From assembly GCA_002633005.1 (NCBI GenBank), contig NMRA01000049.1, forward strand, positions 573,189 through 637,188: a stretch of 64,000 nt of DNA, read 5' to 3'. Shown in pieces: positions 13,001 to 40,000 of the stretch; position 1 is the stretch's first letter; every line of letters starts with the position of its first letter. Origin of the DNA: Phoronis australis (taxonomy: Eukaryota; Animalia; Phoronida). The translations under genes were made by a program, and so were the position numbers. The notes beneath the pieces are model-generated. The model ran no database searches. It was not told the DNA's origin and saw nothing but the letters and a program-made list of their open reading frames with translations.

Positions 13001-16000
13001 TTCTGTCCGGGGTAAACTACGTCATCGTCTGCTTTTCAGAGACATGTAAGACTCTGTTTTCTTTATTTTCATTTGCCTGTCCAGCTTCAAAACTCTATTT
13101 GAGTACAGGTACCCTGTCCAGTCTTCTTTTCATATGCGCTTGAATCCTCACCTCAGGTTGGAAGTGGAGGATGTGTCAAGTGTCAAACTCAATAAAGTCT
13201 CACTAATTTATGTATTGCAGAGAAGTCGCATTTTTTCTCTCATAATGAAAAAAGGCTGAACATGGGTGTTATTTTCGTCCAAAATTAGTGAGGTTCCATG
13301 AGATAATGCCAAAAGTGTAGTTCAATGAAGGTGGAAGTCTATGCTTTTATGCTAACGGTCCTTGTTTGTACATTTGGGTCAAGTGTTGGCTGAATGTATG
13401 TCGCTACTCCACCTTCAATTGTGCTTTAAAGAATGACTTCAAAAACGCAGCTTGATGTTCACATTTTTATTTCTGTTGTCTGAAGGTCCAAACCAGTCTT
13501 CTCTTAATCTGTATGTGGACCTTGATTGAACAGAAATAAAAGAAGTAGGAGTTGAAATTGGAGAAAAATTGTGCTCAAGGGAGGGGGGGCTGCTTTGGAC
13601 AATAGTGAAAAAGAAAATTTTGGAGGTCTGCCAAAATCGACAGTAAGTCATTCAGGCTTGAGTTGAGAAAGTGAAATTTGCCGGTACTGGTATCTCTTTG
13701 CTATTCTGTGTCTGAGCAGGCTTTTATTAACTGTACATCCATTCTGGTCATATGATTATTAACACTTGCATTGTTGTTTTAGATTTCTCATTCCCGAAGA
13801 CAGAGACACATTCTTCACAAATGCTCAACGAAGTCGAATGGTGTTTGAAATTCTTAGTCGTGCCCGTTATGAGGAATCGAGAGAAAAGTTTGGTACGTTC
13901 ATGTTGTACAGTAGAAACGTAGTATTCGGGTCGCTGGTAAATCTGGTTTTGTCTCTGAAAACATCCCCTTTTTCACAGACGTATTTGTTCTTTCAAACTA
14001 ATTTTAGAACGCGTTTTTATCCTTTGTTAGAGCTGAAATTAGGTGAAATAATTGCATGGAATTCTCCAGACAACCATGATGCCTTGGTGTTGTGGCATCA
14101 GTGGGAAATTGGCATTACTCCATTGAGTTTGGTCTTGGTGGCGGTTGTACACGTGGGAATGGAGTGAGAACCGCTATGTAATGTGGAAACTATTTCCAGG
14201 AGTGTCCTGATATATTTAAAAAATTGTATGTCTTTCATTTTAGTTTAGCTTCATTTTCTTTGTCATTGATGTCGATTACGGTTCGGTCGATTCTAGATTC
14301 TAGTCGGCCCTCTTCTGAGGTGCACTATGTCAGCAGTGAAGATGACAATACTCGCAGTATTGGTATAAGTTATGTGTTAAATACCATGATACTAACCAGT
14401 GTTTTGTTTTTTCATTTATCAGTCTTTTACTTTTGTGTTATTCATTTGAGTTATTTTCCTTTCACTTTGGATAGTACTTAAGACAAAGCAAGTTGCATTT
14501 TTGACATTATTGTTTGTCGTTTTGCTACTGGGCCTCAAAGCCAACGTTTATTTTTTAATTACGACAAGTTAGTATTCAAATCTGTATTAAGCTAACTCTT
14601 AACTAGATAAAATCTCTTTGCTTGCTCTGATTTGCACTATTTTACCTTTTCAGAGACCAAAATTAGGCCATTTCTTCTGAGGGCAATAAAATATCTTGCA
14701 AACATTTTCGTTTCCTACTTCAGGAAATTTCTGCCATGATCGTGCGTGATTTCATTTTAGATTTTGCATCAATCTGTGCATCATAATTTTCCGGAAAAAA
14801 TGCTCCAACTTTCAACAGTATGGAATTTTGGTAACAGACTCGGTCTGTATAATAGAGACACCTTCGCGTCAAAGAAAACTATGTACAATTGGTTTAAAAA
14901 TCAAGAAACCTGTGGTATCTGGAAGCGCTGAGTATATCAAAAGTGTTCCAAGATTTAGAGAGCTATGCTTTAGACAATTTTGAATATGCGTTTTTTAATT
15001 CTTCATATCAGCAAAATTTCTGAATCTGAAGACCGAGTCTCCTGAAATTTGTTATATTTAGTGTTACTGTAACAATCTGTTGGTAAAAATTTTTAAGTTA
15101 ATACTTGTGAAATTGGTCAAATTGGGACTCATTGCACCTTGGGAGATTTTACGTTATATGTCTAAAGAAATCCACAAGTTTTCAGATACCCTGTGGGATG
15201 TTCTTGTACAGCGTCGACTTTGTCACCAAGTGCTCTAATCGCACTGTAATGCATTAGCCAATCATTTTCCTCCACAAACTCATTGCTGTTGTGTATTGCC
15301 CAGGTATCAAGAGACTGTTGAACAATGGGACCTACACGGCTGCCTTCCCACTCCATGAGGGTGACTACACAAGCATACACTCCATACTGACCCGCGGTCC
15401 GGCTAACGACAGACATGTGAGTCGTGCATTCGTGTACCCAGTGTAGAGAATCAATTGGAATACCGACAGTTACAAAGCAAAAAGTACTGATAATTTTCTA
15501 ATCATTTGCAATTAATTTTCTTCGGAGTCTCTCATCAGGCGAGGGAAAACAAACCCTTAGCTCGGGCCACGTTCTTATTACGGATCCTGAAATCTACAGA
15601 CACCAGTGCAAGTGCCCAAATTGCGCGACCTAGTTCCTAAGTGTTTCGCGAATCTCGGCATGATAATACATGCGGAATGACCTGTAGATACTCTCTGGTA
15701 CTTGGACTATAACTGCCATTGATATCTAATCCAAAACCAATGAGTCATGACTCTTAATCATTTTTCCTCTGATTACAGCTTCTATACGAGTCGTGGGCCA
15801 AGCCGGCTCGCTGGTACAAATACCAGCCTCTTGATCTGATCAGGTATTTAGCTCCAATCTTTTTGTCGCTATAAGATGTTACATGCGTTCATTGTTTTCG
15901 AATTGCTCTCTCATTAACAGCTTTCAGTTGTTCAAGAGAAAAGAATTCTGTCGCTTAGGAAAGAACTATGGTTAGGGAAAGACTTGTGGTTTGTGTGAAG

Positions 16001-19000
16001 TGAAATTTATCACGTGAGAAGACATGTGTTCGTGAAAAATTAACTCTGTGAGAATGCCCTTTCGATTTACGAGTTAGAAAGAGTGGCTTCCAAACATTTG
16101 GCCTGTGGTTCCTGGGAAGTGTTTTTATCTTTTGCTTCTTGGCAGATTTGAATTCATTAGAATTTTTGGTTGTGATGAATCGAAGGGATTTTACTTCCAA
16201 CAATTTGAAGCCGTCCAAATCACTTTAGGGGATCCTCACTTTTCGAGAACCAGTTTTCTCCACTGAATAACAGGCAACAAACTGGTTCTCAAAAGATTGG
16301 AGGCCGTTGTGACTATTGCTGTTAAACTATTTCCTGCATGCTATTCACATCATCAAAGATTTGATATAATTATAAAGTTTGGCAGCAAACTATTCACTAT
16401 ACTGTCGCCGAGCTCCAAACAAGTTTTTGATGGCAATAATGGTATAAAATTAAAAATTAACTACTGTGGCCTTGACCGTGACAACTTGTGCAGTATCACG
16501 GTCAGGATTCTTGAAGTACTGGCATAAAAAACAATTCTCGATTCTGTCGATCATTTTAGAAAGTCAGTTGGCCGTTTTGTAAGAATTTTTTGTTGTTGTT
16601 TCAACACTCCTTTGCGTGCTAACTTGTTCTTGTTGTCAACTGATTAGTTGCTGTGTGTTGTTACAGGAAGTACTTTGGTGAGAAGATAGCCATTTACTTT
16701 AACTGGCTAGGCTTCTATACTTCCATGTTGATCCCCGCGTCCATCGTAGGCGTGATCGTGTTCTTCTACGGCGTGGGTACGATGTTCTCTGACCAGACTG
16801 TGTAAGTTGTGTGTCTTCACTCGTCTGTTATCATTCGCTCATTTCTTCAATACAAGCTTGAATTTCATTGACCTATTTGAGGAACTTAACAAAGGTCCTA
16901 CCTGTGAAAATACGTGCAGTCATGTCACGTGGCACCCTTTTCTCTCTCAAACGCCCAATGCTAGTGAACAGCCTATTTTGATTGTGCTCTTTGTTAGGAT
17001 CATCTACTGACCACTTAGTCATTCGATGAAACCGTTGAACACAAGTTACAATATTTTCCATTAGAGAGCGCCGTCAGATGTGTCTGTCACAACTGTCTCA
17101 TTCTCTTGCTTCACTTCTTCACTAACACTTAAGATGGGCTCAGTCTTAACAGGTAGACGCTACGGCCAAGACTTGATTAACACATGTCTCTTAATTTTAA
17201 ATGTGGCACATTTGAGGAAATACTAGTTTAGACCTCTGTTGTTTTGTGAGAGCAAGATCTGCAGGACGTAATCTGAAACTTTGTTGGACAGGGGGCGCTG
17301 ATTTGACTAAAATGAAAGGCACTTTCTTTCTGCAATACTTCATTAACATGCTTTTTCACAAATCATTTAGACACCCCGTTGCACAACGGTGGCAAATTTG
17401 TCGACATGATGACGGTATCTAATTTGTTCAAAGGTCTGTAAAATCACATTGTTATGAATCCAAATGGCACGTCAACTGTAGGAAGCGCTAAGCATGTGTT
17501 ACTTAATATCATGTTGTCACAGCTTATTGTCAGTTGCTCTGTCAGAATGGTAAGAACTTGCATTTTCTGCTCAGGCAAGGTAACATGTTATATAAATATG
17601 TATTCTTAAAACAGTCATAGAAATATGTATCGCAAGAATTTTCAAGTCTAGTCAGCACAGTTAACAGTTCGAGTCCCGGTTGGTACAGAAATCTTTTCGG
17701 GCTTATATTCATTGGGTCACGTGATGTGGCCACAGGAGGTGTGCTCACCAGACTTATAATGTTTGCTATAACAGGTTATGTTTAGACTGGTGCAGGATAA
17801 TGCATTCAGTTGTCAGACTGTATATACTTATAATGTTTGCTATAACGTTATGTTTAGACTCGTGCAGGATAATGCATTCAGTTGTCAGACTGTATATACT
17901 TATAATGTTTGCCATAACAGGTTATGTTTAGACTGGTGCAGGATAATGCATTCAGTTGTCAGACTGTACATACTTATAATGTTTGCCATAACAGGTTATG
18001 TTTAGACTGGTGCAGGATAACGCATTCAGTTGTCAGACTGTATATACTTATGTTTGCTATAACGGGGTTATGTTTAGACTCATGCAGGATAATGCATTCA
18101 GTTGTCAGACTGTACATACTTATAATGTTTGCCATAACAGGTTATGTTTAGACTGGTGCAGGATAACGCATTCAATTGTCAGACTGTATATACTTATGTT
18201 TGCTATAACGGGGTTATGTTTAGACTCATGCAGGATAATGCATTCAGTTGTCAGACTGTACATACTTATAATGTTTGCCATAACAGGTTATGTTTAGACT
18301 CGTGCAGGATAATGCATTCAATTGCCAGACTGTATATACTTCCAGTTTGGAGATCTGTGACCCGAATAACAAGTTCTATGCGGGCAACATGCAGATGTGT
18401 CCTCAATGTGACGAACGTTGCGGTTACTGGAAACTGAAAACCAGTTGTCTCTATTCGCGTTTCACGTATATTTTTGACAACTACGCCACCTGCGGTTTCG
18501 CCATCTTCATGTCACTTTGGGGTAAGTTGGCGGTCGTTATCACAGCAAGATTTCACCATACGCGAACAGTAGTTAACCTTGTCATGACTTTGGTAGGGTT
18601 GGTAACCTGTTACATCTTTTTGCACACAGTTGGTAGTTACAGGAATTTTGTTTGAGTTGTGTAATTTTGTTGGAATTGTGGTGAAAGACCTGAAGGAAAT
18701 CCGAATATATTTAAGTTTAAATTGTCTGAATAGCAGTATCCGAAGTGTTTTGGACAAGTAGATACTTGTCAATTTTTTTTAACTCTAATGCATTTTTAAT
18801 TTTCATGAAATTTCTTTCAATAGTCGCTCTCATTCAGTTTCGTGTCTTGCGTTAAAAATTAAACTTCCACATGCATGCTTATCATCGGTTCAGTTAGGTG
18901 TGAAAATAATGAAATTTCTGTCATTTAATTAGTTTCAGACTGTGTTGTAATCATTAACTAACTTTAATTAATTTAAAATCATTGAATTCCGACGTAAGTA

Positions 19001-22000
19001 AAAACTTTGTCAAGTGATCTCCTATCACGTCCTAGTGGGTGGTAATGTAGTCAGCAGAGAGTAGTTGACTAGAACTGCCTAGTATCAGTCTAAATGCATT
19101 CATCTGATTGGTTTTGAGTTTTTCATTTTCATCCTCATTGTCATAATCTGCCAATGGCAAGATTTGTTTCATCTCTAGATTACGCTCCCGAAAGGTTCTC
19201 CCTCACATTCACAGTGATGCACAATTCACCTGGGTTGTAGTTTTATCGAGTCGGTGACATAACAACATCATATATATTAAATAGTTATAAAGAAGATCTA
19301 AACAATAAATCTGTGAGTTGTTATACTTGTCAGAGTCACTTAAATTGCTTCCATTGTTTAGACTCGCAAAGTGTGACTAGTTTACTCGTAACACGTGCTT
19401 CAATCGTTTCCACGTTTACGGGTTTTTTTTGTTGTTTCAGCCACTTTCTTCATAGAATTCTGGAAGCGTCGTCAGGCGGAGTTCCAGTACGACTGGGATG
19501 TTGCTGACTACGAAGAGGAGGAGGTAAAGAAATTTCCTGTAGATTGCACTTTGTCTCGCCATTATGTCAACAGTAAAGTGAATGGTTGTAGTGATGATAA
19601 TTACTGTTTTTTCCAAATCGTAAATGGTTGTAGTAATTCTAGGGAGTTACTTTCCTGGCATATGTGACTGTGGAAGTTTTGCATAAAACACATTGGCATA
19701 ACTGTAGTCTAAATGCCGTGTACTTCCAAATGTTGTTGTGCAGAGATAGTTTGGTTGTTCGGAAAACGTGAAACATGAAGTGGTGGTTTGTTCACAAAGT
19801 GCCACAATTTCTTTTGAGGGTAGAATGTTATTTTGTTCGGAAACGCAGTAAAAGTGAGGATTTCTCAGCTGGTCTCAAATTACATTTCTTATTATTTAGT
19901 TGACAGAGTTCGGACTTAGCAGCACAAGCCAAGTTGCAAAAAGCCTCTGTTATTGTTACTTTTTGTGGGCTTTGAAATGAGAAGTAGCAAAGTGTTGACA
20001 TGAATTATTTTAAAGATTGTTTTGAAGTAGTGAGAAGCTTTTTATTCTACGATTTGGCTTCACGTTCGGAGCAAAAATTGCCAGGTTCTGTTGTTAGCTC
20101 ATGCATTTTAAAGACCTCTTTTACCAAGCTCGTTCTCAGAATGTCCGAGCTCATTAGACTATTAGTTGATGAAACGAGATAAGACCTAGTGGAAAAAATG
20201 CCGCAAGTGCAGCACTCTCTGCAGGGTTCTTACTCGGTTTTTGTCATATTTTCTTATTGGGACCTACCTTGGTGACAGGCCCTTAATGTCTGGTACAGTG
20301 CATGGCCAGCAAGATCACTTTTGTGACGACTTTGTTTCAGCAAAACATTCGTCCGGAGTTCGAGGCGGCCGTACGGCACAAGAAAAAGAACCCTGTAACT
20401 CAGGAGTATGAGCCGTTCCTGCCACTTTTCTCAAAGATACCTCGCTGGGCCTCTTCATTCGTCGTCATTCTATTCATGGTAAGAAGTGATAAATGAATCT
20501 AGGAACGGTGGAATGCTTTATTGAGGGATGTGCACCTGGTCATAGCTGGGATTGTTGTAAGGTTGTAATAGGAAATCCAGTGCTGTGATGTTTTTTTTTG
20601 ATTACAAAACATTGCAAACATGAATTCGATCACAGTTGATATTCAGGCTAAAGTACCATCTTCGAATTGTGTGGTAGTAAAAATAGAAGATGCAACAATT
20701 GCATTGCAACAGGCTTTGATAAATTTGGTCTCCTGGTGGTAAGGCTACAACAGGTACCCCAAATTACTTGGGACTGGGGTTCCTCTGCTGATAAGTGACG
20801 ATTCGCGTCTTGTTTTAGTCTGAAAAATCCAACTAAATAGGGTAAATAATAATGAGATGGTGACTGGCACGAAAATCTTTTCTATCAAATCAATGATATG
20901 TTTATTAATTCTTGCATCTAGTACCAACTACGGTACCTGGGACAGCGATGAGCACAGCAGATCGATAATGACCTTTTGACCTGCTTTTATGTGCCACAGC
21001 GTCTACAATAACTCGCTGAATTAACAAACTGACTCAAAAATAGAAAGTAGCCCAACTCATTTTGACACCTTAAAAGCAACTGCGTGTGTGGCCAGACTTA
21101 TGTACCATCNNNNNNNNNNNNNNNNNNNNNNNNNNNNNNNNNNNNNNNNNNNNNNNNNNNNNNNNNNNNNNNNNNNNNNNNNNNNNNNNNNNNNNNNNNN
21201 NNNNNNNNNNNNNNNNNNNNNNNNNNNNNNNNNNNNNNNNNNNNNNNNNNNNNNNNNNNNNNNNNNNNNNNNNNNNNNNNNNNNNNNNNNNNNNNNNNNN
21301 NNNNNNNNNNNNNNNNNNNNNNNNNNNNNNNNNNNNNNNNNNNNNNNNNNNNNNNNNNNNNNNNNNNNNNNNNNNNNNNNNNNNNNNNNNNNNNNNNNNN
21401 NNNNNNNNNNNNNNNNNNNNNNNNNNNNNNNNNNNNNNNNNNNNNNNNNNNNNNNNNNNNNNNNNNNNNNNNNNNNNNNNNNNNNNNNNNNNNNNNNNNN
21501 NNNNNNNNNNNNNNNNNNNNNNNNNNNNCAAGATTTGTTTCATCCTCATTGTCATAATCTGCCAATGGCAAGATTTGTTTCATCCTCATTGTCATAATCT
21601 GCCAATGGCAAGATTTGTTTCATCCTCATTGTCATAATCTGCCAATGACAAGATTTGTTTCATCCTCATTGTCATAATCTGCCAATGGCAAGATTTGTTT
21701 CATCCTCATTGTCATAATCTGCCAATGACAAGATTTGTTTCATCCTCATTGTCATAATCTGCCAATGGCAAGATTTGTTTCATTTCCAGATTACACTCCC
21801 GATAGGTTCTCCTTCACATTCACAGTGATGCACAATTCAGCTGGGTTGTAGTTTTATTGAGTCGGTGACATAGCAACATCATATATATTAAATAATTATA
21901 AAGAAGATCTAAACAATAAATCTGTGAGTTGTTATACTTGTCAGAGTCACTAAAATTGCTTCCATTGTTTAGACTCGCAAATTGTGACTAGTTTGCACGT

Positions 22001-25000
22001 AATACGTGCTTCAATTATTTCCACATTTACAGGTTATTTTTGTTGTTTCAGCCACTTTCTTCATAGAATTCTGGAAGCGTCGTCAGGCGGAGTTCCAGTA
22101 CGACTGGGATGTTGCTGATTACGAAGAGGAGGAGGTAAAGAAATTGCCATTATGTCAACAGTAGAGTGAATGGTTGTAGTGATAATAATTACTGTTTTTA
22201 CTAAAAAGTAAATGGTTGTAGTAATTCCAGGGAGATACTTTCTTGGCATATGTGACGGTGGAAGTTTTGCATAAAACACATTGGCATAACTGTTGTCCAA
22301 ATACCATGTACTTCCAAATGTTGTTGTGCAGAGACAGTTTGGTTGTTCAGAAAACGTGAAACATGAAGCGGTGGATTGTTCACAAAGTGCCACAATTTCT
22401 TTTGAGTGTAGAATGTTATTTTGTTCGGAAACGCAGTAATAGTGAGGATTTCTCAGCTGGTCTCAAATTACATTTCTTATTATTTAGTTGACAGAGTTCG
22501 GACTTAGCAGCACAAGCCAAGTTGCAAAAAGCCTCTGTTTTTGTTACTTTTTTGTGGGCTTTGAAATGAGAAGTAGCAAAGTGTTGACATGAATTATTTT
22601 AAAGATTGTTTTGAAGTGGTGAGAAGCTTTTTATTCTACGATTTGGCTTCAAGTTCGGAGCAAAAATTGCCAGGTTCTGTTGTTAGCTCATGCATTTTAA
22701 AGACCTCTCTTACCAAGCTCATTCTCAGAATGTCCAAGCTCATTAAACTATTAGTTGAGGAAACGAGATAAGACCTAGTGGAAAAAATGCCGTAAGTGCA
22801 GCACTGTCTGCAGGGTCCTTACACGGTTTTTGTCATATTTTCTTATTGGGACCTACCATGGTGACAGGCCCTTAATGTCTAGTACAGTGCATGGCCAGCA
22901 TGATCACTTTTGCGACGACTTCGTTTCAGCAAAACATTCGTCCGGAGTTCGAGGCGGCCGTACGGCACAAGAAAAAGAACCCTGTAACTCAGGAGTATGA
23001 GCCGTTCCTGCCACTTTTCTCAAAGATACCTCGCTGGACCTCTTCATTCGTCGTCATTCTATTCATGGTAAGAAGCGATAAATGAATCTAGGCAACGGTG
23101 GAATGCTTTATTGAGGGATGTGCACCTGGTCATAGCTGGGATTGTTGTAAGGTTGTAATAGGAAATCCAGTGCTGTGATGTTTTTTTTGATTACAAAACA
23201 TTGCAAACATGAATTCGATCATAGTTGATATTCACGCTTAAGTACCATCTTCGAATTGTGTGGTAGTAAAAATAGAAGATGCAACAATTGCGTTGCAACA
23301 GGCTTTGATAAATTTGGTCTCCTGGTGGTAAGGCTGCAACAGGTACCCCAAATTACTTGGGACTGGGGTTCCTCTGCTGTTAAGTGACGATTCGCGTCTT
23401 GTTTTAGTCTGAAAAATCCAACTAAATAGGGTAAATAATAATGAGATGGTGACTGGCACGAAAATCTTTTCTATCAAATCAATGATATGTTTATTAATTC
23501 TTGCATCTAGTAACAACTACGGTACCTGGGACAGCGATGAGCACAGCAGATCGATAATGACCTTTTGACCTGCTTTTATGTGCCACAGCGTCTACAATAA
23601 CTCGCTGAATTAACAAACTGACTCAAAAATAGAAAGTAGCCCAACTCATTTTGACACCTTAAAAGCAACTGCGTGTGTGGCCAGACTTATGTACCATCCA
23701 ACAAAGACCAAAATGGACAAGACGACGAGTCAGTACAATAATGTACACATTCAGTTAGCTAAGTATAAAATATTCACCAGGAGGCACATTGGCTATGGTC
23801 AAACATTTGAGCAGAAACACTTCATTGATGTAAGTATTACAACGCCAGAACAACAAATGACTCCTGGTCCTAGCTAATCATTACTTGCCCCTCTGGCTAA
23901 GAAGTGCCTGGGCATGCCTGCTACTTTAATTGCTAGTGAACAGGTGGTTTCTAGAGGTGGTGTTACGGCCCAGAGAACAGTCATGTTATGAACAAGTAAG
24001 CCGGCTAGTGTTTTTGAAAACCAACATGTATGGCACGTCATTGTATACTTACAACTCATTTTCAAAGAAATAACAAAAAAGTTTGGTTCCAATAATGTTT
24101 CCACCATGAAATTAGAATGGAAAGTGTCATGAATAATTTCAAATTTTGTTTTGAGTAATAGATGAGACCCCGGACGCTGATTTCACCAGTCTGTAGCATG
24201 TTTTTTCACTTTGTTTTCTCAGTTACTCTCATTATAGAATCCACCTTGTTCTTTCCCATTTCAGATCGTGTTGGTGTTGGCAGCCATATTTGGCGTGATC
24301 CTCTATCGTATCGTCGTCGTGGTATTGCTCTATTCGACCAAAGTCGAAGTCGTCATGAAAACAGCAGGCATCGTCAAGTCTATCACGGCAGCCATAATAT
24401 CCCTTGTGATCATTACTATACTGAACAAGGTAAGACATTGGATCATTGCTATACTGAACAAGGTAAAACAATGGACCATTGTCAAGACTATCATGGCAGC
24501 CATAATATCCCTTGTGATCATTACTATACTGAACGAGGTAAGACATTGGATCATTGTATGCGGTGTTCAGTGGTATCAAGTTCAATCTGTGTTATTTACA
24601 TTTTAATTGGCAATATTGACATATGCTTCAGTAGCGCCATGAGATGTCACTTTTTTTCTGCTGACATCACATTTGCCATCAGCAAGAGATGGCTTGCGTA
24701 TCGATTACCGTTGGTCTTGAAATATTGATGATCTCCTGAAAAAAATAGTGTTGTTGTATATTATATGAATGCATGGGTCCGTCCATAAATCTATTGCTGA
24801 ATTTACTTTTTATTTGTTAAGTTTGATTCAGTAAATGAATCGAAGAGATTTGAGAATTGATGTTCCCAAATCCCCACCTTGAAGTGGTTTTTTGAAGTCA
24901 AATTTGATTTTCCATTATGCACTGAGCTTGCAGAACCAAATCAAATTTCTGTATAATTTTGATTTTTTCAGGTATACGAAAAAGTGGCCTACTACCTTAC

Positions 25001-28000
25001 AAACTGGGGTGAGTGATACGGCTACGTGCTCTGTGTGGCAACCTGTCTGCCATGCAACCTGTCTGCCATGCAACCTGTCTGCCATGCAACCTGTCTGCCA
25101 TGGAGCCTGGCTGCCATGGAGCCTGGCTGCCATGCAACCTGGCTGCCATGGAGCCTGGCTGCCATGGAGCCTGGCTGCCATGCAACCTGTCTGCCATGCA
25201 ACCTGTCTGCCATGCAACCTGTCTGCCATGCAACCTGTCTGCCATGCAACCTGTCTGCCATGGAGCCTGGCTGCGTTACTATCCTTTATGTCTTTTCAAA
25301 CTTGGTATATTTGAAAACAGCACAGTGTGAAAAGTCCCATGTTAAGGGTGTTTGACACAGCTTTGATTTATCGTTCATTTTTAATTGTGCTTTGTTTCTT
25401 GGTCTTTGCATACTACAAATCTCTCCACTGCAGCCACCTAAACACAGGCACCTCTGGCAAAAATAATATTCACATGGACACCTGAAAAGCCACTTTTTAT
25501 TGAATCAAGTACTGAAGTCTTTTGGAAATGGGATAATTTCCAATGTCAGTTTTATGTTGTGATGGCTTCTGTATTTTCCGGTTTCTTTAAGGTTTTATTT
25601 TGATGCGCTACGTGTTTGCTATGAAATCAGAATAAAAATTAGAGGGTCACGGACAAGCTTAAACTGTGGGACTTAAGAAAGCCTGCCAATTTATTTCAAG
25701 GTGACAATTACTCCGTTGCATTTCACTAGATGGCGATTATGCTAACTTATCGAGTTTGTTCGAATTAACTAAAACATAAACTGTCTTCTGTAATAAATTC
25801 AAATTTGCCATCTTGCTACAAATATAGTCTGAAACGAGATTCTAAGTTTCAAGAGCACGAAACCATGAAAATAACGTTGGAAGCACGGTTGCAGATTTTA
25901 AATTTATTGGAACTTGGCATGAAATAGCAACATGCGTACCCTTTTGCCTGGCAGTTTTACATCCATTAATTATCAGAAGTAATATACACTGGTATTTTTA
26001 GCGCTCAAAATGGTGGAGTAGTAAATGTTTTTTAATGGAACGTAGAGTCATTTGTATGCATGAGAGTCCGATTGTTTGCACTCTTTGAATTCTTAAAATA
26101 TTATTTATTGGTGTAGTAATACTAGCATACAGTAGTTTCTTAAGGGGAGACAACTCTACAATTGGATACTAAAACACAGTGACTGATAATACTGAGCTGT
26201 GATCAGAAGAAAATGAAACTTTATTTCTCACTGCAGAAAGTCATAGAACCGAAACTGAATGGGAGGACAGCTTCACGTTTAAGATGTTCTTGTTCCAAGC
26301 TGTCAACTACTACGGCACCATATTCTACATTGCTTTCTTCAAAGGAAGGTAGGAATGTTTAATTTGTACTTCGGCCATCTTGATTTAACGAACGAATGGT
26401 TTTGATAATTGAGCTGGCTTTTAAGATAGTCTGGCACAGTTGAACTTTGTCTTGGCATCACAACGCGGTTTTTATTATTCTTGAAATGTGTAGTATGTTA
26501 TTATAATAGATTTTGTTCAGTAAAAAATCCAGTTGAAGTATTCTAAAATCTTCATTCTCATGTTGACCTCTATAAGTCGGTATAGATCAAAATTTTCAAC
26601 ACAGCTTATGTAGCATCAGATTTACCAGAATTTCATAGTTTAAGTCACGATGCGTCTGCATATCAGTCGTGTTCCTCACCAGATGTCTCAGCATTCAGTG
26701 ACCTGTAGAAGACATCTGGTTTTTACCGTAGTGTCAAACGAAATGTATCAACAGGTTCAACGGGACACCGTATGACAGAGCCTACTTTCTTGGTTACCGG
26801 ATGGATGAGGTATTATTATATCGTTGCAAAAATCGCTGGGATTAATGATTTCTGCAGGAGTAGGGATTGTAATCATATTATTGTAACGTCTGCTTAACCT
26901 CGCGCTGTGGCTATGACGAGGTTGTGGTATTAGTTATGGAAGCAGACATCTTTAGGCTTGGATTAGGTCAGCTGTTTATATTTTATTGTCGCTTGGCTTG
27001 TTTTTTCGTATTTGCCAGCTTACTGTGAAGGAGGTGGTGACTGAATCCAATGAAATCTAAATATGCCAAGCTCGCCGAAATTACTCTATTCTTACATTTA
27101 ACATTGCGTTGCCTGCTCTGTGATGAAACGTTGTCGCTATAGAGGTGAATCGTCATTTTCTTGTCAATTACTGGGTTCCGTGTGTTGTGTGTCGTCTCTA
27201 ATGGGAGAGTCGAATGAAGCCTCTGTGTAGGGTAATGTCGCTGTTGAGGTGAACATTAATGTCATTATGTTTCAGGTCATGGGTTAATGGTCATCCGAGT
27301 AGCAGGAATTACATAGGAGGCCACTATTACCCGGAATCGGTGACATTTTTTTCGTTCATGTTTCTAGGTTTGCATGGTGCGATGACGTCATAGCTTGTTG
27401 CTGGGAAAATATCTGGAGATGTTCTATGACTTTGAGTCTTAATTTGGTTTTTGCAATTCCCAAAGCACTGTAGACAAAGCTGCACCAGTGTCTTTCCGAT
27501 TTTCTGTTTGGAATTTCCATCATGAATTAAGTAAGGCAGGTTAGGCTAAGCCGCAGTGGGTCTCGTACTTTTCAGTTCATTTCCAGTCTTCTCCCTTGGT
27601 ACTTAAAGTTCGCGTCATGCGAAGTGCATAAAACTTTGTTTTTGCTAATCGCTGTAAAGATATTGACAAGTTTATCTTTTGTTTTGGAAACTTGTCCTGT
27701 TATTCACTATATTAATTCTGTTTTTGAGTTTAGGAATTGTCAGTTGTTTGAAAGGAAACGTTAGTGATCACAGAAAAATGAAAGGTTGTTTGCTGAATCA
27801 CATCTTTACTGCATTTACCTATATCACCCAAGATCCAACGATGGACTGAACCGAAATTATTAATCCATACCCGCGGATCCAGGTATTTTTGGGTACCCTC
27901 TATTTTTTTTGCCCTAAAGAAATGCAATGTACACATCGAATTATCCCAGCAACTTTGCTATGGTGTCTCGAAAACTTGAATTCCCCTTCATACTTCCTCC

Positions 28001-31000
28001 CATCATTTCGCCGATTGCTTTCAGGTTGTTTCAATCCATGCTTGTCGCAGTGGCTGTCCCAACAACGCTTGATCCTGCAGAGTTGTTTGGCCAACTTTTT
28101 CAGTTCTAGGAAAGTAGCTTGCATCGACTGTTTGGATAGTACGCGTCCGATTATTGGAGCCACGTAATCTTGTCTTGGGCCACAAAAGCTTAGTTGAACA
28201 AATATGAACTGGGAGTAGTGTTAAACTGAAATGCACTAATTTACATCGCTCATTGGAAGTTTTAACCTTTCCATCATCTTAGACTTTGTGCACCAAGTAC
28301 TAAAACATTGGGCTCGTGTCTTCACCAAGATGAATTGACTAAGTCATAAACATTATTCGACAGGCTGTGATTAGTTGTTCGATCGAAACACGTGTTTCTG
28401 TGTTGTACATACATTTAGTTATGCTCATGTTGGCGTCAGGATTCCTTTCTGATTTTAGATGTAAATACATCTACTTAAGCGACAAAACACACGATTGTGG
28501 CATTCTACTTGAAAATATATACGTGACCCCAGGATTTAATCTTTGACCCAAAATTTAACCAATCATCTCGCATTATTTGATTACAGATTTGTAAGCCTAC
28601 ATGCAATTGATTGATTTCAAGTCAAATGTGGAGTACCGGGATTTGACCCCGCAGCCCAGATGAGCTCACCTTATTGGAACTTGAGACAGATTTCGTGTGG
28701 CCCATTAACTGACTAGTACCTTTTAGCGGATGATTCTGTATGATGGTTAAATCTCACCAATTTCAGGCTGAAATAATCGCCAAAATGTCCTTCCACCCAC
28801 AAATTTTCAAAACTTTGCTTAACAGCGTAGGTATTGAACAAAACTTGTACATGGTAAAGCACTTAATTTGGTGCCGTATATCTTTCGTGGAAAAACAATG
28901 AAATGAAATTTCACTTGTCGGCCATATTGTGTCCTAAATTGGCGAGATTTCACTGTATTTGTCACGTTTTCAGGTTCGCTGACAGACAGTAGAAGTGGCT
29001 GCAAACGTAACGCTTAGTAGTTATTGTCCGGGGACCAGTTTGGTCGATTTCATCTACAGCGCTGTTGTTGTCTTGTAAGTGCACTGTGGGACGGTTGTCG
29101 ACTATCCAGTGACATCATGGATAACTTGGTGACCTGTGGATATTAATTTAATGGAAAACAACGTTTGTCTCTTAAGCATATGAGGGGTCCACTGTAACGT
29201 GCTTCTTGGTGCAAGTATGACTAAGCAACGCTCATCATTGTAAGTGAGCCAAAATACATTGCGTAAATTCACACAATAGCAAATCTTTTGCACAAAACGT
29301 TCTTGATCCCATGAAGTTAAGTGTTGCGGCCTAAAATGGATATTACAAATCATATCGCACATCCTCATGTTATTTGTGATGTCACCGGATTTTTCCTTGC
29401 CATCAGCCATCCCACAGTGCAATTGGAAGACAACAGCAGCATCATGGATGAAATTCTCCGAACTAATTTAGAGTTGTTATTGTTATCCAATTTTGTAATT
29501 GTGTTGTGGTATGTATTTTATTGACTTGGTACAATTAGTTGAGCTTGTCTACTAACTGTAAAAGTTATGTGTTGCATTTTTTTCTGTCACTCACTTAGAT
29601 TCAGCGGTCGTCCTGGAAACTACGACTACTCCGTGGCCAACTATCGCCTGGATGAGGTGCCTTTTTCTAAAGCAACAACATAAATAACAAAGTCCTAACA
29701 TGTCGTCTTCCAAATTGCACCATGCGCCTATGAATTCGGCTTGTTGATCTTTACTCTGGAAATTACTGTCTTTCTAGTTTTTCTGCATCAATAAGGTGTT
29801 TGGAGTTCTTTGACCAGTTGCATGAAACAGTCCCAAATAGGGACTCAAGTTCCCTAAATGTACTGCGTATTTATGTTCTTCACTCACAGATGTAATATTT
29901 TTTCTATCATTCTATTTTTATTACGAGCTCCTCCTTGACTATACTGAGCCCTTAATTAAGTCATAATAATTAGGGACTTAGTCCTTAAAATAGGAATGTT
30001 GCATGAAAAGATCGCCACTCATTTTCAGTGATATTGATAATTCTACATAGAGTTCACTCTCGATTTTATATCAAAGTCAAAAATTGACTTAATAATGAGA
30101 CTCAAACAAGAAAGGACTATCAGTGTTTTCACAAGCCCACAAATACGCAGTAGATTTAGGAAGCTTAGCCGAGTCCCAATTTGGGACTGTTTCATCCATT
30201 GGAGCAAAGGTGATGTTAGTTTTGGAACTGTACTTGTTTGGATTAATGCCTTCTGAAGGGAACTCAAGAATCGGGGAGTAGGCATTACCCTTAGTATGGG
30301 CACTTAAAACTAATTGTAGAAATAAGGGATGGGCGTTTACCGAACGGTCGATTTGGTTAAACATCAAGGGAATTGTATTAAAGTGGGATTACACATAGTG
30401 GGAGTCGAATAAAACTGGTATGTGAGTACAGGAATTTTACCACCCGGGTATGGTAAGGTGCTGATGAAACTGTGTTTGTTACTCATGGGTATGTGAGTCG
30501 TAGTTTTGTACCTTTTGGGAGATGAAATTCACACGAGGCAGGGATTGACAAAGACATGGGCATTTTGAAGAAAGTTTCGTTCGTTTGAATTGGGAGATGA
30601 CGTTGAAAAATGAAAATTTTGAAATTTCCAGCACAGGTGTTGAGTCGAACTTGGGTTTTAACCTGAATGAGTATGGTAAAAACCTGGGAACTATAAAACC
30701 TGGGAACTATTTTTGTCAAAAGTTTGTTCTGTATTTGTGAAATCATTCTCTAATGAAAAGGTCATAAAGTATTCAAACACCTGTTGACGCAGTCATTGAA
30801 ACCAAAACCACGATTTCTGGAGCTGGAGATCTCTTGTTTCGGCAGTAATGCAGGCTTGTGTGACTGGCAGTCATGGCAAAGTTCATCAGCTCTTATCATA
30901 GCAAAGGTCATCAGCTCATGTCATAGCGCATGAATTCAGTGATCCTCTGGACAGCTTTGGTACACTCATTAGATGGCAGCACTGTGTATCACCATGGTGT

Positions 31001-34000
31001 AATTTTGGAGCTGTGCTTTAACATTGCCTGCACAATAATTCGAAGTTTTATGCGATCATGCAGCCTTTTTGCACCCTGAGTTTGTAACCATTGGGTGGCG
31101 TTCTTATCCTTGGTTTATGATCAGTGGCTGCTCAGAAGGACTGGTTTTGACCATCGTTTTATACTCCTCAGTCATCAAAATAATTGTATAGATGAGTTTA
31201 TATATATATATATATATATAGGAGTTTCTAAAAACGGTTTGTTCCAGTAATGCTGAAACATTTATGAGAAAATGGTCCGAGATTAGCTTGAAATTTTTGT
31301 TGCAAAACTTTACTGATTTTTCAGCCAAATGGTATCGGTCAATTGTGTTAAACCACTGGGTTTCTGAGCAGCCGTTTTTCAGAGTTTCCGAGTAGTTTGT
31401 GTTGTTTATACTCCGGCTTGTGTGTCTTTGTTGAAGTATTTGCCTAACATTTTAATTCCTTTTTGAAATCATTGTTTTTCAGTGCATGCCGCGCCTCTGT
31501 TAAATGTTAGCTTGCCTAATATTAAGATTCTGGCTTAAATATAATTTTTTTGCACCTGTGTTGTCACTAGGACTATTGTTGGACGGCCTGGACAGTACAA
31601 CCGTATCTTAGGCTTCCGCACTGAAGAGGTTTGAGTGCATTCGGATATGATGTAGTGCCTTATTTGTCTGTCTGTCTGTCTCTGGAGGCCTTTGCGTATT
31701 AAGAAATTCTCAAAACAAGTATTTGCGGTAATGGGTAGAAAAATCTTTTTATGAAATGTACATTAATTGATCAGAATTTAGTTACTAAAACTCAACTTAA
31801 GACTTTCCAATTTTTTCAAAAAATGGTCAAAGTTTCGTGGATTTACATGCCGCGTTTACTGCAGACGTCTCCTTTTCTCAACTTCAGTACTGTTTAGTTC
31901 GAATAGGTTACTAGGCAATATCTGTTTTGTAGTAGGTTTCATCTTTACAAGTATGGAAACTGTCCTCCTGTAGATGTCACTGTTACTAACACTCTTGCTA
32001 CAGTCAGTATCCTGAGCAAGTGGCGCACTCTGTTGTTTATAGCTTTGCTCCACAACCAGTGGTGGCCAAACTGCTTACAGCATAGAGATTTTCTAAAACA
32101 TTACCCCACTACAGAGGCACAACATTTGCCCTTTTGCAGTACCCTGTGTTTCCAAGTAAATGACAGAATTTCATGGTATGTTGGTCCGGTTAAGCCTGCA
32201 GCATACTGACCAATCTTTGACAGTGACAAAGATAATCACAAAGTGTGCTGCAGGCTTTATGGTGGACTATAAGGCATCCTAAGATTGAAGACAGTGAGTA
32301 GAAATATGTACAAAAATTTTGAACTACGCAAAATCAAATTGGCCAAATAACTTTAAGCGAATTCATGACATAGAACATAACTTGTGCGTGTGAAAGTGTT
32401 CATTCTTGAATTCGATGAGATTCTGTTACCATTGAGATAACGCGTCTCTGCAGCTAGCTGTTGGTCATTGGCTATAACTGATAGACATCGTGTTGGCAGA
32501 GTGCGCTTTCACATTACTCATTCCTAGCGGTGAATTTGGTTTTCAGTTTCTGACATTCTACAGTCGTGCAAGCCCCTGTTCTTTGTTCTTTGCCTGCATG
32601 TGCGTACAGGACTTTGGAGACCATTAACAATCTTAAGCTTCCGTAACATTTCCTCTTCGTTCTAAATTTCTTCAGGATTCAAGGTAGACCCGGTGACTAT
32701 GCACGTATTGCTGGCTTTAGACAGGAAGAGGTTTGCATGTTTTAGATAATTCCTTAGAGGGTGGCACAGATATACTGACGGCACTAAAAAAATAGAATGA
32801 TTTAAGTTCTGGGTGACAATGTCGTGCCGTTCTTCGCACCGTCTAAACCAGAGAAAACGTACCTAAACTAAACTAACTATAGGCCCCAGAAGTAGTCGGA
32901 CAAAATGACATTCACAGATACGCCCTGGTGGATGGGGCAAGCACAAATTCTCTGTCAAATTAACTGTCTTTCTTGACCAGGAACTAAGGTTGACCTCTCT
33001 GAAAAATGGGAGCATCGTGGGATTGCTGATATTCTTGACAGGCTGACTGTTTCATGAAAGTGAATTGAGACATGTCGTTGGCCATGGTGTTGCCAGATGA
33101 CATGTAACTACAGGATAAAGTTATAATTTTTCCTTATCATTCTTTTGTTGAAATTACAGGGGGGGGGGTTCTTTTTGTAAAACTGATATCGACTTCTGTC
33201 ACTGGAGTTCCATGACATGATTTGTAATTCTCTCTGAAAATTTGTCTCTTGTGCCACCCCCTGAGATCACCTTTCTCTTCTAAAGTAGTTCTAACAATAT
33301 TATTGTACATAAATTTATCGAATTAAACAAAACCAAAGATTTTTTGTACTAACCAATGATCATAAGATCAGTTGTTTAACTCACGAACAAAGCCTATTAA
33401 TTCTGAATGACTGAGTCTGGATTTGAATTGGCATATTCACTGTTTTTACACTAACTGCATGCTTTTATATTAAGTTTCGCTCTGTCCTTATTTTAAGTTT
33501 TGCTTTGTCCTTGTTTAAGTTTCTTTGGAATGCCAGTGCGTGTTTTGTGTCATTCTAACAAATCTATTGCTCTTTTTAAGTAAGGTGAATCGGTTAATTG
33601 GTTGAAATCACTTGTAATTAAAACGCATTTATGATGAAAAAACAATCCTGAAATTAATGTAAAATGCATAGCTTAGAGGCCTTTATGCTGAGTTTTGAGT
33701 AGTAAGTTCACATCCATCAAATCAAATTACCTGCAAATCCTGTGAAGATATTCATTTTCAGTTGAATTTTTGTCCGATAACACTGAACTGTGTCTGTCAG
33801 CTCCTCCTTGTTACAAATACTATGAAAACAATCACGCAACTGTTAGTATGTCTTTCATATTGATGTTGTAGGGGGTTTTGCACCTGGCTTGAAGTAGTTT
33901 TCAAAATAAACTAGGCATACCTCTGCCACACAGCCAAACATGGACAAACTTCTTGCCAGAATTTATTACCAATTTAGTTGATTGTTTGTCTCAATAGCAT

Positions 34001-37000
34001 GAGCATTTTTGTGGAATTATAAGATATTACGGTAGAGTGCGATGATAATGTTTATATGTAGATGGACCTGTAGGGTAACTTGTTCTGATTTCAAAAAAGT
34101 GGGTGGAGCAACACCTGTCAATATTTAACCTGAAGTAAAGCTTCTAGCTGAAAAGAAATAGATAGTTAGTACTGCTGTGGTTTTGTTCATCAAAAGTTTT
34201 TTCATTGCCATGCACATTTTATTTTGAAAACTGCTTTCAGGATATAACTGAAGTACGGTAAAAACCTTTTTACTTCGAACAAAAACATTATTTTTGCTAA
34301 AGTTGCAGTTTTTACATTTTAAGAGGTCTTCTACTATATCGCAAATACTCGATTTTTTTCCAAATGTTGTTTGGTGATATATGCAGTACAGACGGTGAAT
34401 GCTAAAGGCAAAGTAAAATTTCCTGAAAATTATTTTTGTAGAGAATTCTGAAAAAAATAAATGTCAGTTGTCTACCATATTGTTTCCCAAACTGATTTTT
34501 TTACCTGAATTCTGCATATTGGCCTTTTTGCTGCCTTCTTCGTTATTACTGTTTCTGATCTCAAGTTTGTATTTTAGTGTGACCCGGCCGGTTGTCTGAT
34601 TGACTTATGCATTCAGCTTGGAATAGTCATGCTTGGTAAACAGTGTATTAACAACTTCAAGGAATTATTTATACCGTAAGTTTGCCATTGTTACAGTACA
34701 CGCCAAAAGTATCCAGACAAAATGAACCGTAAGTTAACCTCGGTTGGATGGACAGAAGCCAAATTCATGGTCAGAGTAATATTTCCTCATGACTGAGAGT
34801 GAAGGGGTCCAAAATGGAATGTTGGGAAGGTGGCTGACCCGTACTATTAAGAATTTTGTCGTAATTAGCTGTCATGCTGGGGAAAACTATTTTGTCTGAT
34901 TACTTTTGCCTTGTACTGTATGTCTGTCTTTATTTTAAGAAACTAAATGGAGATTAATTGGAAGTTTAAATGTATATATAATTACCCGTATTGCTCAAGT
35001 CAAGAAGTATACGTACTATGTCTGACACAGAAAATATCAGTTTAAAGCCTTCGTGGGATAGTTTTTTGTTATCCTTGATTTATTGGATTTCGCAGGTGGT
35101 CATAGTGCTTCAGCAGCGCAAGACGAGATTATTCAAACACTCCGAATAGGTGTAGTAGACTTTCCATCGCAGTGAGAAAACAGGTAGCAAAGAACGTCTG
35201 CCTGCAGTATTTACTTGCAGTGGGTTCCAATGTATATTGAATAGAACGCCAATGTGGACGGTTGCTCGAAGCACGTGCAGCTGTTTGAATGAACTGGGAA
35301 CTTTGGTAGTAATGAAGACGAAAGGCGCAATAAGCCTTACCTTTCATTACATTTGACAATTGATGACTTCGTTGTCATCAGAATGGTTCTTGTATCATAT
35401 TTTAGGAACTTAATTCACTTGTGTTAGTTTTTAGTAATGGAGGGTCTCTTAAACAATGGTGTGACACTGTTTAAAAACAATGGTATGGCACTGGTTGGTT
35501 TTTGGAAGGAAATCTTCTACTCTGCAAAGGCTTTAACAGTTGATGTTTTGTAGAGACTGTGCGTAATGTTTCTGTCATTTGGCAAATAATGCCATTAGGA
35601 AGGTTGGGTAGAAATTATTGCAGGTGCACAAACATCAAGCTTTCCACTCATCTACCATTCCATTGTTGCAAGGTTTCCTCGTTGACCTATTAAAGTAGTC
35701 GTCTTACATTGTAATCTTTTGTGGGAGTTTGCAAGATGCCCTGTTGACCATGGTTAAGTGGTTTCTACTTTCTCAATAGGTGGATATTGAAGTGCTTGCG
35801 CACACGCAAGTCTAAGAAGACCGAGAAAGAGAATGTGTACACTCGGTGGGAACAAGATTTTGATCTGTCGCTACAACCGAACAATGGATTATTTGAGGAG
35901 TACTTGGAGATGGGTAAGTGGCAACATTAACCAATAGAAGGCCGAGGGACCATTCTTAATTGACCTATCGCAAGCTCCGCCCCCTTGCGAAAAGTCTACA
36001 AATAAACAATAAGTTCTACCCAACAACGCATTGTTTGCTGGGTAGAATGGCAGCTTGGAAACGATGGTTTGTCAAGAATGCTGCGTTCTGATTGGTCAGT
36101 TAAACCGTCACTTATCACTGTTGTCATGTGTGTACAAACTGTATGCTTTCAGTGACCCTGTGCCTCCCCCCAAACGGTATGTCTATGCTTTTGTATGTGT
36201 GAGTGTGCTCAAAATTAAATGCCAATTTTGGTTTCTACAGTGATGTGGTATAAAAATAAAATATTTTTTGAACAGTTTTTGGTATTGTTTTCGGTGGGTT
36301 GGATCTCAGAAACATTTGTGCTATTTGGTATTTCGTAATGTTTTTATGATCTTAAAAAGTAACTAAAAACATTGACGTCTGTCATTTTTATGACGTCAAA
36401 AGCGTATGCAAGCAGCAAGCCCCGACCCCGCCCCTCTAAAGCGTACCATTTGTACAATCTTGAAAGCATCGATAATTGCACGTTCTCACTTAACACATGC
36501 ATGGAAAAGTTCAGCTCCAGAGATATCTGCCAGCAATTATGCAAGAATATACTATCTAGTTTAACGGTTGATTTATTCAAGTTGGCAACAAAAGGGTGAC
36601 CTCTTGGATACACTACTAGGCATCCTCCAAGCTGAGCACTAATCCTCTTCTTTATCAATCATCTATTGAATTTGAATAGCTGTTCTCCCTAGACTCTCCT
36701 TTGTGGTGCATGAGAAAGGCTGATCACTGCATTTGCATACCGTCCAAGTGCAGTGACTGATATCGGCGCAAAACCTGGTGTACGTTTAGTAGACGCATGA
36801 ATTTCGCGGAAACAAAGATCACGCAAGAGCTTGCAAAATTACTCAAGCGAAAAGTTAGTGTTTCTCAATTTTGCTGAGGATGTTGCAAACTGGTGGCCAC
36901 TGAAATGGTGAGGTTGTGATGTTGAGTTCATCATTTCAGTTGCGTAAACGAAGATGTCTAGCTCTGTAATGCTTCGCACTTGTGTCCAGTCTGCGTAGCA

Positions 37001-40000
37001 CACTCTTGGCTATTGGCAGTATTGGCCAGTAGGAGATGGACGCTAAGCCTATGCCTTACAGTCTCAGCCTTGTAGGAAACTTCCTCATTACTCACAGTGT
37101 TTGCCTGGGCAGTATCAGCCAATTGGAGACTGACACAAATTCTATATGTGAGGGTAGTTTTAACCAATAGAACACTTCCACATAATATCAGTGTTGATCC
37201 AGGCTGTCTTGACAAATGGGGGGCAGCCTTAATCTCCAATTCATGTGTTATCACATAATAAGAGATTGGAAAAATAACATTTACTATATGAAACAAATAG
37301 GGCCTGCTATAGCAAATCAGATCTTCGACATGTGTGGGTAATTAAAAGCTTTGTAGATTTAGACTTGAGTGTTACTGCACAGCACAGACTGCTGTGCAGA
37401 CCGCCCCCTTTAGTCTGTTGTTAACTTCCTGTTCTGGTTTAATCAACTGTTTGCTTGCAGTCATTCAATTTGGCTTCGTCACCATTTTCGTCGCCGCCTT
37501 TCCATTGGCTCCATTGTGCGCCTTGATTAACAACTTCATTGAAATCCGATTGGACGCCTACAAGTTTGTGTGCGTGTGGCGACGACCAATGGCGGCGAGA
37601 GCTCAGGACATTGGTAAGTTCAGTTTCGCACAGAATATGCATGTATTAGTAATAAATATAGGGTGTCTTAAAAATTCGGTTCCCGCGGATTGGGCCTACT
37701 GTATGTTTACACCTTGCTATGAAAGTAGGCGTGAGTTGATACATGCTCTGTTTACACAGTAATGGCCAACAAACAACTCGGAAAATTGATCGCGCAATTC
37801 AGCTGTAAACTCAGATACGTCAAAATACATTTATTATGGTTTAAGGAATTGGTTCCTTTTTGATCACCTATTGATGAAATTAAACCAGTAATCTTGTTCC
37901 TAAGTTAATACGCAATGCAGTTATTATCATTTGAAGTGTGGGTACTTTTTTCAAGACACCCTGTGTATCGTATTAATGTGGAAACTTTTGCTGGATATCT
38001 GAAGCTTACTGAGTCCTCTTCATTCCTACAGTGTCTTACACACTCGTCTGGGTTAACCTTCGTGTTCAACTTACACGCCCGCCCCAAATTTTAACTTTGT
38101 TGGAGTCGTGCTCAGCATGATTCCCTTCTCCTAATTTTTGAGTTTCCCAAGTCGAACACCCTGGGCATTAGTCTGGATGAGACAGGTAGTACGTTGCGCG
38201 TCAGTGGTTGTTCACACTGCTCCATCACCTGGGACAGCCAATAACAAGGCACCGACTATGTATTGTTCTGCATGCTATGTCTTCCAAAATGGCAGGGTGG
38301 TCTAATTAGTCATTCATAAGTCACCATCTACACTCAACAATCTTTAAGATGTTGCACAGTCATTTGCTATCTAGTAACGGCGATTCTGCATGAATTTTTG
38401 AGACTCCATCTACAGGCAACTCCATGTTTGAACTTAATATTCTTAAACCGGACGATCGCCGCTCAAATAAAAAAGTTCATTTAGGACAACAAGTGCCAAC
38501 ATACAGCTCAGGTAACATCCATAGAGTGAAGTGAAAGATACATAGAATACTCTATGGATGTTACCTGAGCTGTATGTTGGCACTTGTTGTTTTAAATTGT
38601 TGTAAATATGATCCCGATGATGTCTATTGAAAAGACGAAACATTGAATTGAACATAAACTTTTTTACTTGTGCGGCGATCGTCCGGTTTTTGATCTTATT
38701 GTGGCCAAAAACTGATTTAATTTATATTGTTAGTGACTGAAATATTGTGTACGCATCTTCACTGCCTATTTTCAGGTGTCTGGTTCTACATTATAAAGAC
38801 CATTGCTAGAATTGCTACTCTGACGAATGTAAGTTTTCATCCTCTTCATTTTGGAATTAGGGATTCAACAAAAATGTGTTCATTATGGTGCTGTCTCTGT
38901 CCCCCGATTATCTGTGTGCAACTACTGTCAGTCAGTTGTAAGGACTGGGGCCATTTAAAGGCAAGAAGTTCACGCTGAAAATGAGCCATCGTTGAACTGT
39001 AGTTCATCACAGTTTCATAAAGGGGACATGGGAAACTGGAAGGTTCAGCCAAAATATGGCATAGCAGTAACTTCTGGTTTTTTAAGGCGACATTGATAAA
39101 AGTTCCATAGCTTTGGAAATCGCTGCAATTCGTAGCAGATGTAAATGATTCTTCTGTTGTTAGAAGTCATTCCTTACGCTGCCTATTTCCGAGATTTTGC
39201 CTTGCAAAATGGTCGCTGCTTTCTGAATGAGTAGCTGATTGTCAAATATTTGACCTTGAATTGACCTTGAGACTGTCTGTTGCAGGGGTTTATTCTGGCT
39301 TTCACCTCGGACTTTGTACCCAAGCTGGTCTATAAGTACTTCTACAGTGACAATGAAACGACCGAGGGCTATGTAGCCTGGTCCTTGTCCTCCTTCAATA
39401 CATCAGACTTTGAAGCTCGCAGCGTGCCGCAGGGTGTATGGAATGTCACAGAATGCAAGTACGTTCTTTGTTTTCAAAGTCCTGGATGTGTGAGTTCATG
39501 AGAAACCGTGAAAAGATCTGGTTTGTGAAACACTTCGACTCATTTCACCTGCAAGGGCAGGGTACAAGGTCACATGTTATCAGAGGTTATACAACAAAAT
39601 GTAGCGATTAACTCTCAACTGATACACTGTTCATTGTGGTAGATTATGATGACGGTTTCCTTGTGGGAATACTGACTAGTGTCTCAGTTCCATTTTTATG
39701 AAAACTAGAAGTGTCATGTTAGTTTTCGCAAGCCTGTAAGCATCTTAGCTGCTACTGAGAACACGACCTCTTTAGGATCTCCTAAGCTGTATTTAAAGTC
39801 GTGACATAACTCATTCTACTTTGGTAAGGTGTTCTGATTCCATGCATTTTTATTGTTCTTCAGTTGACATGCATTGGTATATAGATCTGTGCACGTTTGT
39901 AAGACATGTGTTATGTTATGTGGCAAATTTGACGTTTGTTTTCAGTTTGCATAGCTTTATGTGTCCCAGTGGAAAAGAATTCAGTTGACTTTGAAAAAAA

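Follow-up and report, generated by a model that had tools for sequence, protein, structure and literature searches.

An ANO4-like gene with five homologous exons

We analysed a stretch of 64,000 nucleotides (nt) from the genome of the phoronid Phoronis australis (GenBank assembly GCA_002633005.1, contig NMRA01000049.1, positions 573,189 to 637,188 of the forward strand), referred to below as the window. On its plus strand lies an ANO4-like gene of the anoctamin (TMEM16) family (8845..42158), for which tblastn of homologues gave 20 constitutive exons in addition to a cassette of alternative exons. The 5' end of the gene falls outside this model, and all modelled introns are GT-AG. The product carries the PF16178 dimerisation domain followed by the PF04547 membrane domain, which places it in the anoctamin/TMEM16 family (Pfam), and its identity to ANO4-like proteins of molluscs and annelids is 55-59%. 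A quick protein tree of 41 rows placed it inside the lophotrochozoan group, sister to molluscs, with an unstarred support of 85; this tree was built without ANO1/2/5/6 and does not address orthology to vertebrate ANO3/4.

The cassette occupies an intron of 8.2 kilobases (kb) between two constitutive plus-strand exons encoding transmembrane segments 5 and 6: the TM5 exon (26237..26348), which ends in phase 2, and the TM6 exon (34578..34675), which starts in phase 0 and matches Pfam Anoctamin 246-278. Five plus-strand exons lie between these common partners: A (26755..26809, 55 nt), B (27276..27339, 64 nt), C (29599..29656, 58 nt), D (31571..31628, 58 nt) and E (32676..32730, 55 nt). Each is preceded by AG and followed by GT, has a length of 3n+1 and is free of stops in the frame that links the TM5 exon to the TM6 exon. 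A preliminary description of this DNA, made from the letters alone, had proposed these five exons, and their coordinates, lengths and open frames were all borne out.

We then enumerated the intron without reference to this proposal, obtaining 274 stop-free candidates of 40-100 nt bounded by AG and GT or GC. The five exons and their overlapping variants scored 26-64 against another member of the set, compared with 13 for the next unrelated candidate; on the reverse strand the top score was 21 among 298 candidates. This enumeration of the 8.2-kb intron revealed no sixth cassette exon. The set consists of tandem-duplicated homologous exons of similar length, with the same phase and canonical splice sites. 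Exon B is its weakest and most divergent member (score 26) and ends in Tyr-Pro-Glu-Ser, so that the motif thought to be common to all five, an Arg-x-acid-Glu ending, is present in four of them and absent from B.

The divergence of the copies carries a record of constraint. Exons D and E are identical at 13 of 18 residues, 8 of these through different codons, and they agree at 14 of 18 second codon positions vs 5 of 18 third positions (p=0.007). Position 2 is better kept than position 3 in 9 of the 10 exon pairs, the exception being B-C. Agreement at third codon positions is only 19-53% among the five exons, and the introns around them are unrelated. This codon-position pattern indicates that the copies are old and have been constrained, D included for most of its history, with D diverging from E under purifying selection, as the preliminary description had supposed. 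In an exon tree the sister relationship of D and E, grouped at 96, was the sole grouping resolved.

RNA junctions and reading frame

RNA evidence was taken from three stranded raw-read runs (X1, X2 and X3) and one contig set (X4) with the same species label, mapped to positions 26100-34800. About 18-19% of each raw run was used; joints needed at least three reads, and the counts given here refer to 15 of the 18 joints found. Exon A was joined to the TM5 exon by 4, 4 and 17 reads in X1, X2 and X3 and to the TM6 exon by 2, 0 and 14. Exon C was likewise joined on both sides (4, 4 and 4 reads from TM5; 3, 3 and 2 to TM6), as was exon E (17, 6 and 5; 5, 13 and 7). Exon B was joined to TM6 by 1, 0 and 5 reads, with no TM5-B joint among those listed. 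In total, 65 reads connect TM5 to A, C or E and 55 connect A, B, C or E to TM6, all at GT..AG borders on the sense strand, and one X4 contig spans TM5-A-TM6. The remaining eight listed joints are repeat noise in introns.

No joint between two cassette exons, and none skipping the whole cassette, occurred among the 15 of 18 joints, vs 120 single-exon junction reads. A count of junctions from the TM5 exon to each acceptor and from each donor to the TM6 exon had been suggested as a check; it showed several different exons joined singly and, among the joints listed, no multi-exon inclusion. The claim of five isoforms held in part: A, B, C and E are joined to TM6, and A, C and E also to TM5, but D has no listed joint. 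Usage shifted between samples, A leading in X3 and E being the main form in X1 and X2; counted by distinct read starts, the shift reached p=0.006 at 3' joints and p=0.057 at 5' joints.

The reading frame points the same way. Inclusion of any single cassette exon (5/5) leaves an open frame of 826-829 codons, whereas a stop 692-937 nt before the last modelled junction results when all of them are skipped or when two to five are included, in each of the 26 possible combinations. Inclusion of exactly one exon is the only open product, as had been predicted. The argument offered for this, a shift of frame, applies to zero, two or three exons; inclusion of four restores the frame modulo 3 yet still meets stops.

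Inverted-repeat elements and a short dispersed repeat (29808-30209, 29037-29464 and 28906-28950) lie in the cassette introns and show high read depth on both strands; the two inverted-repeat elements flank exon C.

The same loop is swapped in other animals

In many anoctamin genes this loop forms an exon of its own with phase 2 and phase 0 borders. We surveyed isoforms in 30 protein clusters, with at most 15 members listed for each. In three clusters, those of Lineus longissimus, Owenia fusiformis and Priapulus caudatus, the members listed included two loops within identical flanks: Lineus isoforms X9 and X8, two Owenia isoforms, and Priapulus isoforms X2 and X1 show 0 mismatches outside the loop. 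These are automatically annotated database isoform models, which speak for the protein level and not for genomic layout. Lineus (P0038 / P0412) also has a second ANO4-like gene, in which the one loop listed is similar to the minor loop of the spliced gene; gene duplication may there have fixed one splice form.

Genomic layout was addressed by a metagenome pattern scan for the end of the TM5 exon, which gave 111 loci, 48 of them reaching the TM6 exon. One of these 48 is an array: in the annelid-like contig L048, the TM5 and TM6 exons enclose three loop exons, which are 64, 55 and 55 nt long. A further 15 have one exon scoring at least 40, and the 32 without an exon at that score are fused, short-intron or divergent paralogues. 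A search with a C-terminal exon for close relatives gave no match. The preliminary description had proposed looking for a conserved array in related genomes; the alternative use of the loop does recur outside this species, as a genomic array in L048 and as isoforms in Lineus, Owenia and Priapulus, although one-to-one orthology of single exons does not follow.

Mutually exclusive use of the cassette exons is therefore supported by RNA junctions for four of the five exons and by the frame logic, and further by the genomic array of L048 and the loop-swapped isoforms from three other phyla, in agreement with the original proposal. The loop exon is a unit able to duplicate, and duplications took place in at least four lineages at the level of phyla. 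In the window as in L048, a divergent 64-nt exon lies 5' of canonical ones, the mutual similarity of these two 64-nt exons being low (score 10, z 1.3). In the exon tree the divergent loops of Lineus, Owenia, an unnamed transcript and Priapulus grouped weakly (bootstrap 51-78). One old origin with losses and several independent duplications are both possible, and the tree does not settle between them.

Two further observations were made on the metagenome loci. The partial locus L032 (reverse strand, 580-640 nt after its TM5 exon) has a first loop exon of 61 nt, of divergent type and without the pore arginine, and may be the start of another array. In annelid-like loci with a single loop exon (L010, L011, L018, L040, L059 and L071), about 100-150 nt of the intron after that exon can be aligned at 74-79% and the rest of the intron cannot; the alignable stretch is possibly a splicing element.

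What the loop encodes

By alignment, the first residue of the TM6 exon, a Cys, corresponds to C625 of mouse TMEM16A(ac) and to C596 of TMEM16F. The cassette therefore equals TMEM16A 606-624, which confirms its assignment to the extracellular TM5-TM6 loop, and holds R621, E623 and E624 (R621 being TMEM16F R592). In the accessible parts of PMC8835819 and PMC8640346, R617 of the (a) form, the same residue as R621, is counted among the basic pore residues that anion permeation requires, and the outside proton sensor is given as E623 of the TM5-TM6 loop. The R592E change in TMEM16F abolishes current although the protein reaches the membrane (PMC3639583, in part), and mutations of E623 and E624 weaken several inhibitors (PMC10245117, in part).

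Exons A, C, D and E keep the pore arginine, A and C with Asp at the E623 position, and C, D and E all retain the arginine and two acids. Exons C and E are canonical-type loops, C being the nearest to the single loops of other animals. Exon A adds a predicted N-glycosylation sequon. In exon B, Tyr replaces the arginine and Ser replaces E624. Alternative loops without the arginine also occur in one of the two Owenia isoforms and in both Priapulus isoforms. An AlphaFold model of the divergent-loop isoform of Owenia, based on a 36-row alignment, has the anoctamin fold with a predicted local distance difference test (pLDDT) score of 74; in the loop the score is below 50, so the model is uninformative on loop shape.

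The rest of the pore hints at the type of protein. The TM5 position equivalent to TMEM16A K588 (K584 in the a form), which we take to sort channel type from scramblase type, is Gln here, like Q559 of TMEM16F, with Lys absent; the ANO1-like metagenome loci L007 and L013 have Lys there. On this residue the window anoctamin is more likely a scramblase or a poorly selective channel than a chloride channel.

How a single exon may be chosen

The introns between cassette exons measure 466-2259 nt, their AG-free zones are short (21-42 nt) and no U12-type donor is present; steric exclusion and U2/U12 incompatibility are thereby ruled out. The five cassette donors match the consensus at 1 of 4 intronic positions, vs 2-4 for 19 constitutive donors (p=0.0003). 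One hexamer, presumably an Rbfox site, lies within 32 nt downstream of both B and E, vs 1 of 20 constitutive exons, and is a lead at most.

The preliminary description had likened the array to Dscam, where, as in Mhc, 14-3-3zeta and MRP1, exclusivity arises from competing RNA pairings between one docking site and one selector per exon. The part of PMC6071210 available presents such pairings as the main mechanism where a cluster exceeds two exons, and some single duplexes downstream of B, C and D were stronger than 19-20 of 20 shuffles. However, these duplexes pair with different targets for each exon, and in the common-site search 57, 176 and 64 of 200 shuffles reached or exceeded the observed score in the window, as did 160 and 86 of 200 in L048. 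No shared docking site was found upstream or downstream of the exons in the window or in L048, short conserved pairings being able to escape such a search without sister genomes, and a repeat search and Rfam revealed nothing shared. The likeness to Dscam in mechanism is therefore not upheld above shuffles, and we regard control by docking as doubtful here.

Regulated choice among weak exons, with decay as proofreader, is the likelier mechanism. Nonsense-mediated decay is held unable to police clusters of more than three exons, according to the accessible text of PMC6071210. In the present cluster such policing would be possible in principle, given that an early stop occurs in every product with other than one cassette exon.

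Interpretation and alternatives

We propose that five alternative exons, clustered through tandem duplication and with four of them observed singly spliced, swap the outer pore loop of one anoctamin, with isoforms predicted to differ in ion or lipid passage, pH sensing or blocker binding; we give this reading a probability of about 0.8. The anatomy of the cluster, the single-exon junctions for A, B, C and E, the frame logic, the position of the loop and the same swap in other phyla are observed. A phase 2/phase 0 exon of 3n+1 nt would act as a self-contained duplicable unit, so that nonsense-mediated decay would eliminate transcripts with zero or several copies, which carry a premature stop. 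Weak donor sites would make each copy optional, splicing factors picking one by tissue or state. Because the exon encodes the equivalents of TMEM16A R621, E623 and E624, its choice would retune the vestibule, and exon B, which has no arginine, would be expected to differ most. The loop swap thus likely lets one gene tune what the pore passes and senses.

Several points weigh against this reading. Exon D has no joint among the 15 of 18 listed, exon B is supported by its 3' joint only, with 6 reads, and given the threshold of at least three reads and the partial listing, rare multi-exon products could exist. In the isoform survey one loop per species was seen among the members listed for 27 of the 30 clusters, with all 17 named clusters of molluscs and 7 of deuterostomes among them, and only 1 of the 48 metagenome loci with both flanks carries an array; many lineages therefore dispense with the cluster. 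The signal from weak donors is confounded in part: the cassette exons end in AG, an ending with which weak intronic parts of a donor are tolerated, and single loop exons of other animals also have weak donors. Finally, functional difference between the isoforms is a prediction from sequence, and decay of wrong products is a predicted step.

Another explanation accepts the splicing and regards the copies as functionally near-equivalent, the duplicates being kept by drift, decay clearing the wrong products and D or B being on the way out. Most sampled lineages indeed manage with a single loop exon, D has no listed joint and the retained residues of C, D and E would fit near-equivalence. Against this stand the synonymous saturation of D vs E alongside conserved residues, the difference in exon usage between samples, and the repeated presence, in genes of nemerteans, annelids and priapulids, of an alternative loop that diverges strongly. 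We therefore consider it improbable. An assembly artefact, or separate paralogous genes collapsed into one locus, is very improbable and had already been discounted in the preliminary description: at N gaps the window does contain two duplications (95% and 98% identical) that are likely haplotypes left uncollapsed, but the cassette exons differ widely at third codon positions and sit in unrelated introns, and RNA reads connect different cassette exons with a single TM5 exon and a single TM6 exon, with sense-strand intron reads in 30 of 30 bins.

The swap of the outer pore loop can be extended to a broader, speculative scenario. An ancient protostome splice switch, predating the split of priapulids from annelids and nemerteans, might toggle one TMEM16 protein between a canonical arginine-bearing pore mouth and a divergent, often arginine-less one, and hence between ion-conducting and lipid-scrambling or differently gated modes; it would have been expanded to five states here and lost in snails, bivalves and cephalopods. 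We rate this scenario as rather unlikely.

Other features of the window

A block of 2 kb that includes two anoctamin exons (83 and 138 nt) occurs twice, at 19127-21109 and 21738-23698, with 95.4% identity across an N gap (21110-21528), and is likely an uncollapsed haplotype; were it real, the use of both exon pairs (83 + 138 nt) together would shift the frame. A tandem duplication of 715 nt (3941-4655 and 4657-5368, 98.3% identity) around a single N is likely an assembly join artefact. Intronic tandem repeats occur at 17700-18300, 24430-24520 and 25010-25290; the repeat after the exon ending at 24429 copies part of the exon end and could supply extra donor sites. Open reading frame (ORF) fragments at 41126-41359, 47516-47937 and 60697-61047 (minus strand) resemble what we take to be mobile-element remnants and had no match in Pfam. 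Pfam gave no match for four transposon-remnant-like ORFs, nor for two further ORFs.

Comparison with known systems

Splice variants are known to tune anoctamin function: TMEM16A, B and F have segments a-d, exon 0, exon 4/14 and V1-V5 (PMC8835819, in part). The variants listed in the portion of that review available are optional N-terminal, first-intracellular-loop or C-terminal segments, with no homologous swap and none in the TM5-TM6 loop. No anoctamin exon cluster was found in the literature searched, with subscription papers, bioRxiv supplements and invertebrate exon catalogues out of reach, which agrees within these bounds with the earlier impression that none had been described; the two matches followed up concern CaV1.2. 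The ANO gene names searched had no match in the supplements of the human catalogues PMC9741552, PMC5740500 and PMC8373072, ANO8-10 being covered only in the last. Closely related to the present cluster are the ANO4-like isoforms of Lineus longissimus, Owenia fusiformis and Priapulus caudatus, in which the same loop of the same family is swapped within identical flanks; they differ in having two loops each among the members listed, and they are unremarked database models for which we found no paper. Mutually exclusive channel exons are well known, and the anoctamin cluster is real, expressed, phylogenetically spread and apparently undescribed.

Such a cluster bears on the role of the outer loop, an open question in the TMEM16 family. 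Residues encoded by the loop exon have been described as highly conserved among TMEM16 proteins, and point mutation has been the sole means of studying them. The loops seen here amount to five to a dozen natural versions of the entire vestibule loop on fixed backgrounds, some of them without the pore arginine. This panel could test the role of the loop in anion/cation selectivity, proton gating, inhibitor binding and lipid scrambling.

In other channels, exon 8 of nicotinic acetylcholine receptor (nAChR) alpha6 from insects includes pore-lining sequence. The alpha6 gene, with exons 3a/3b and three alternatives of exon 8, likewise has small mutually exclusive clusters of homologous exons (PMC5111602, in part). 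It belongs to another channel family and has two or three copies vs five here; moreover, its 45-nt exon 3 can be left out without loss of frame, whereas skipping here breaks the frame. Tandem duplicated exons also swap a functional channel segment in CaV1.2 (exons 8/8a; PMC4555475, in part) and in SCN genes (exon 5a/5b; PMC12772994, in part). Those are pairs in voltage-gated channels, in contrast to the present TMEM16 gene with its five copies of the exon for an extracellular vestibule loop. The clusters of Dscam, Mhc, 14-3-3zeta and MRP1 resemble the present one in offering more than two homologous exons and using one of them. They differ from it in that here we found no shared docking site, and that a single cluster of five gives no combinatorial repertoire. 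Unlike in these clusters, the 3n+1 length would make every wrong product a decay target, a case that the literature, as far as the accessible part of PMC6071210 goes, treats as unavailable above three exons.

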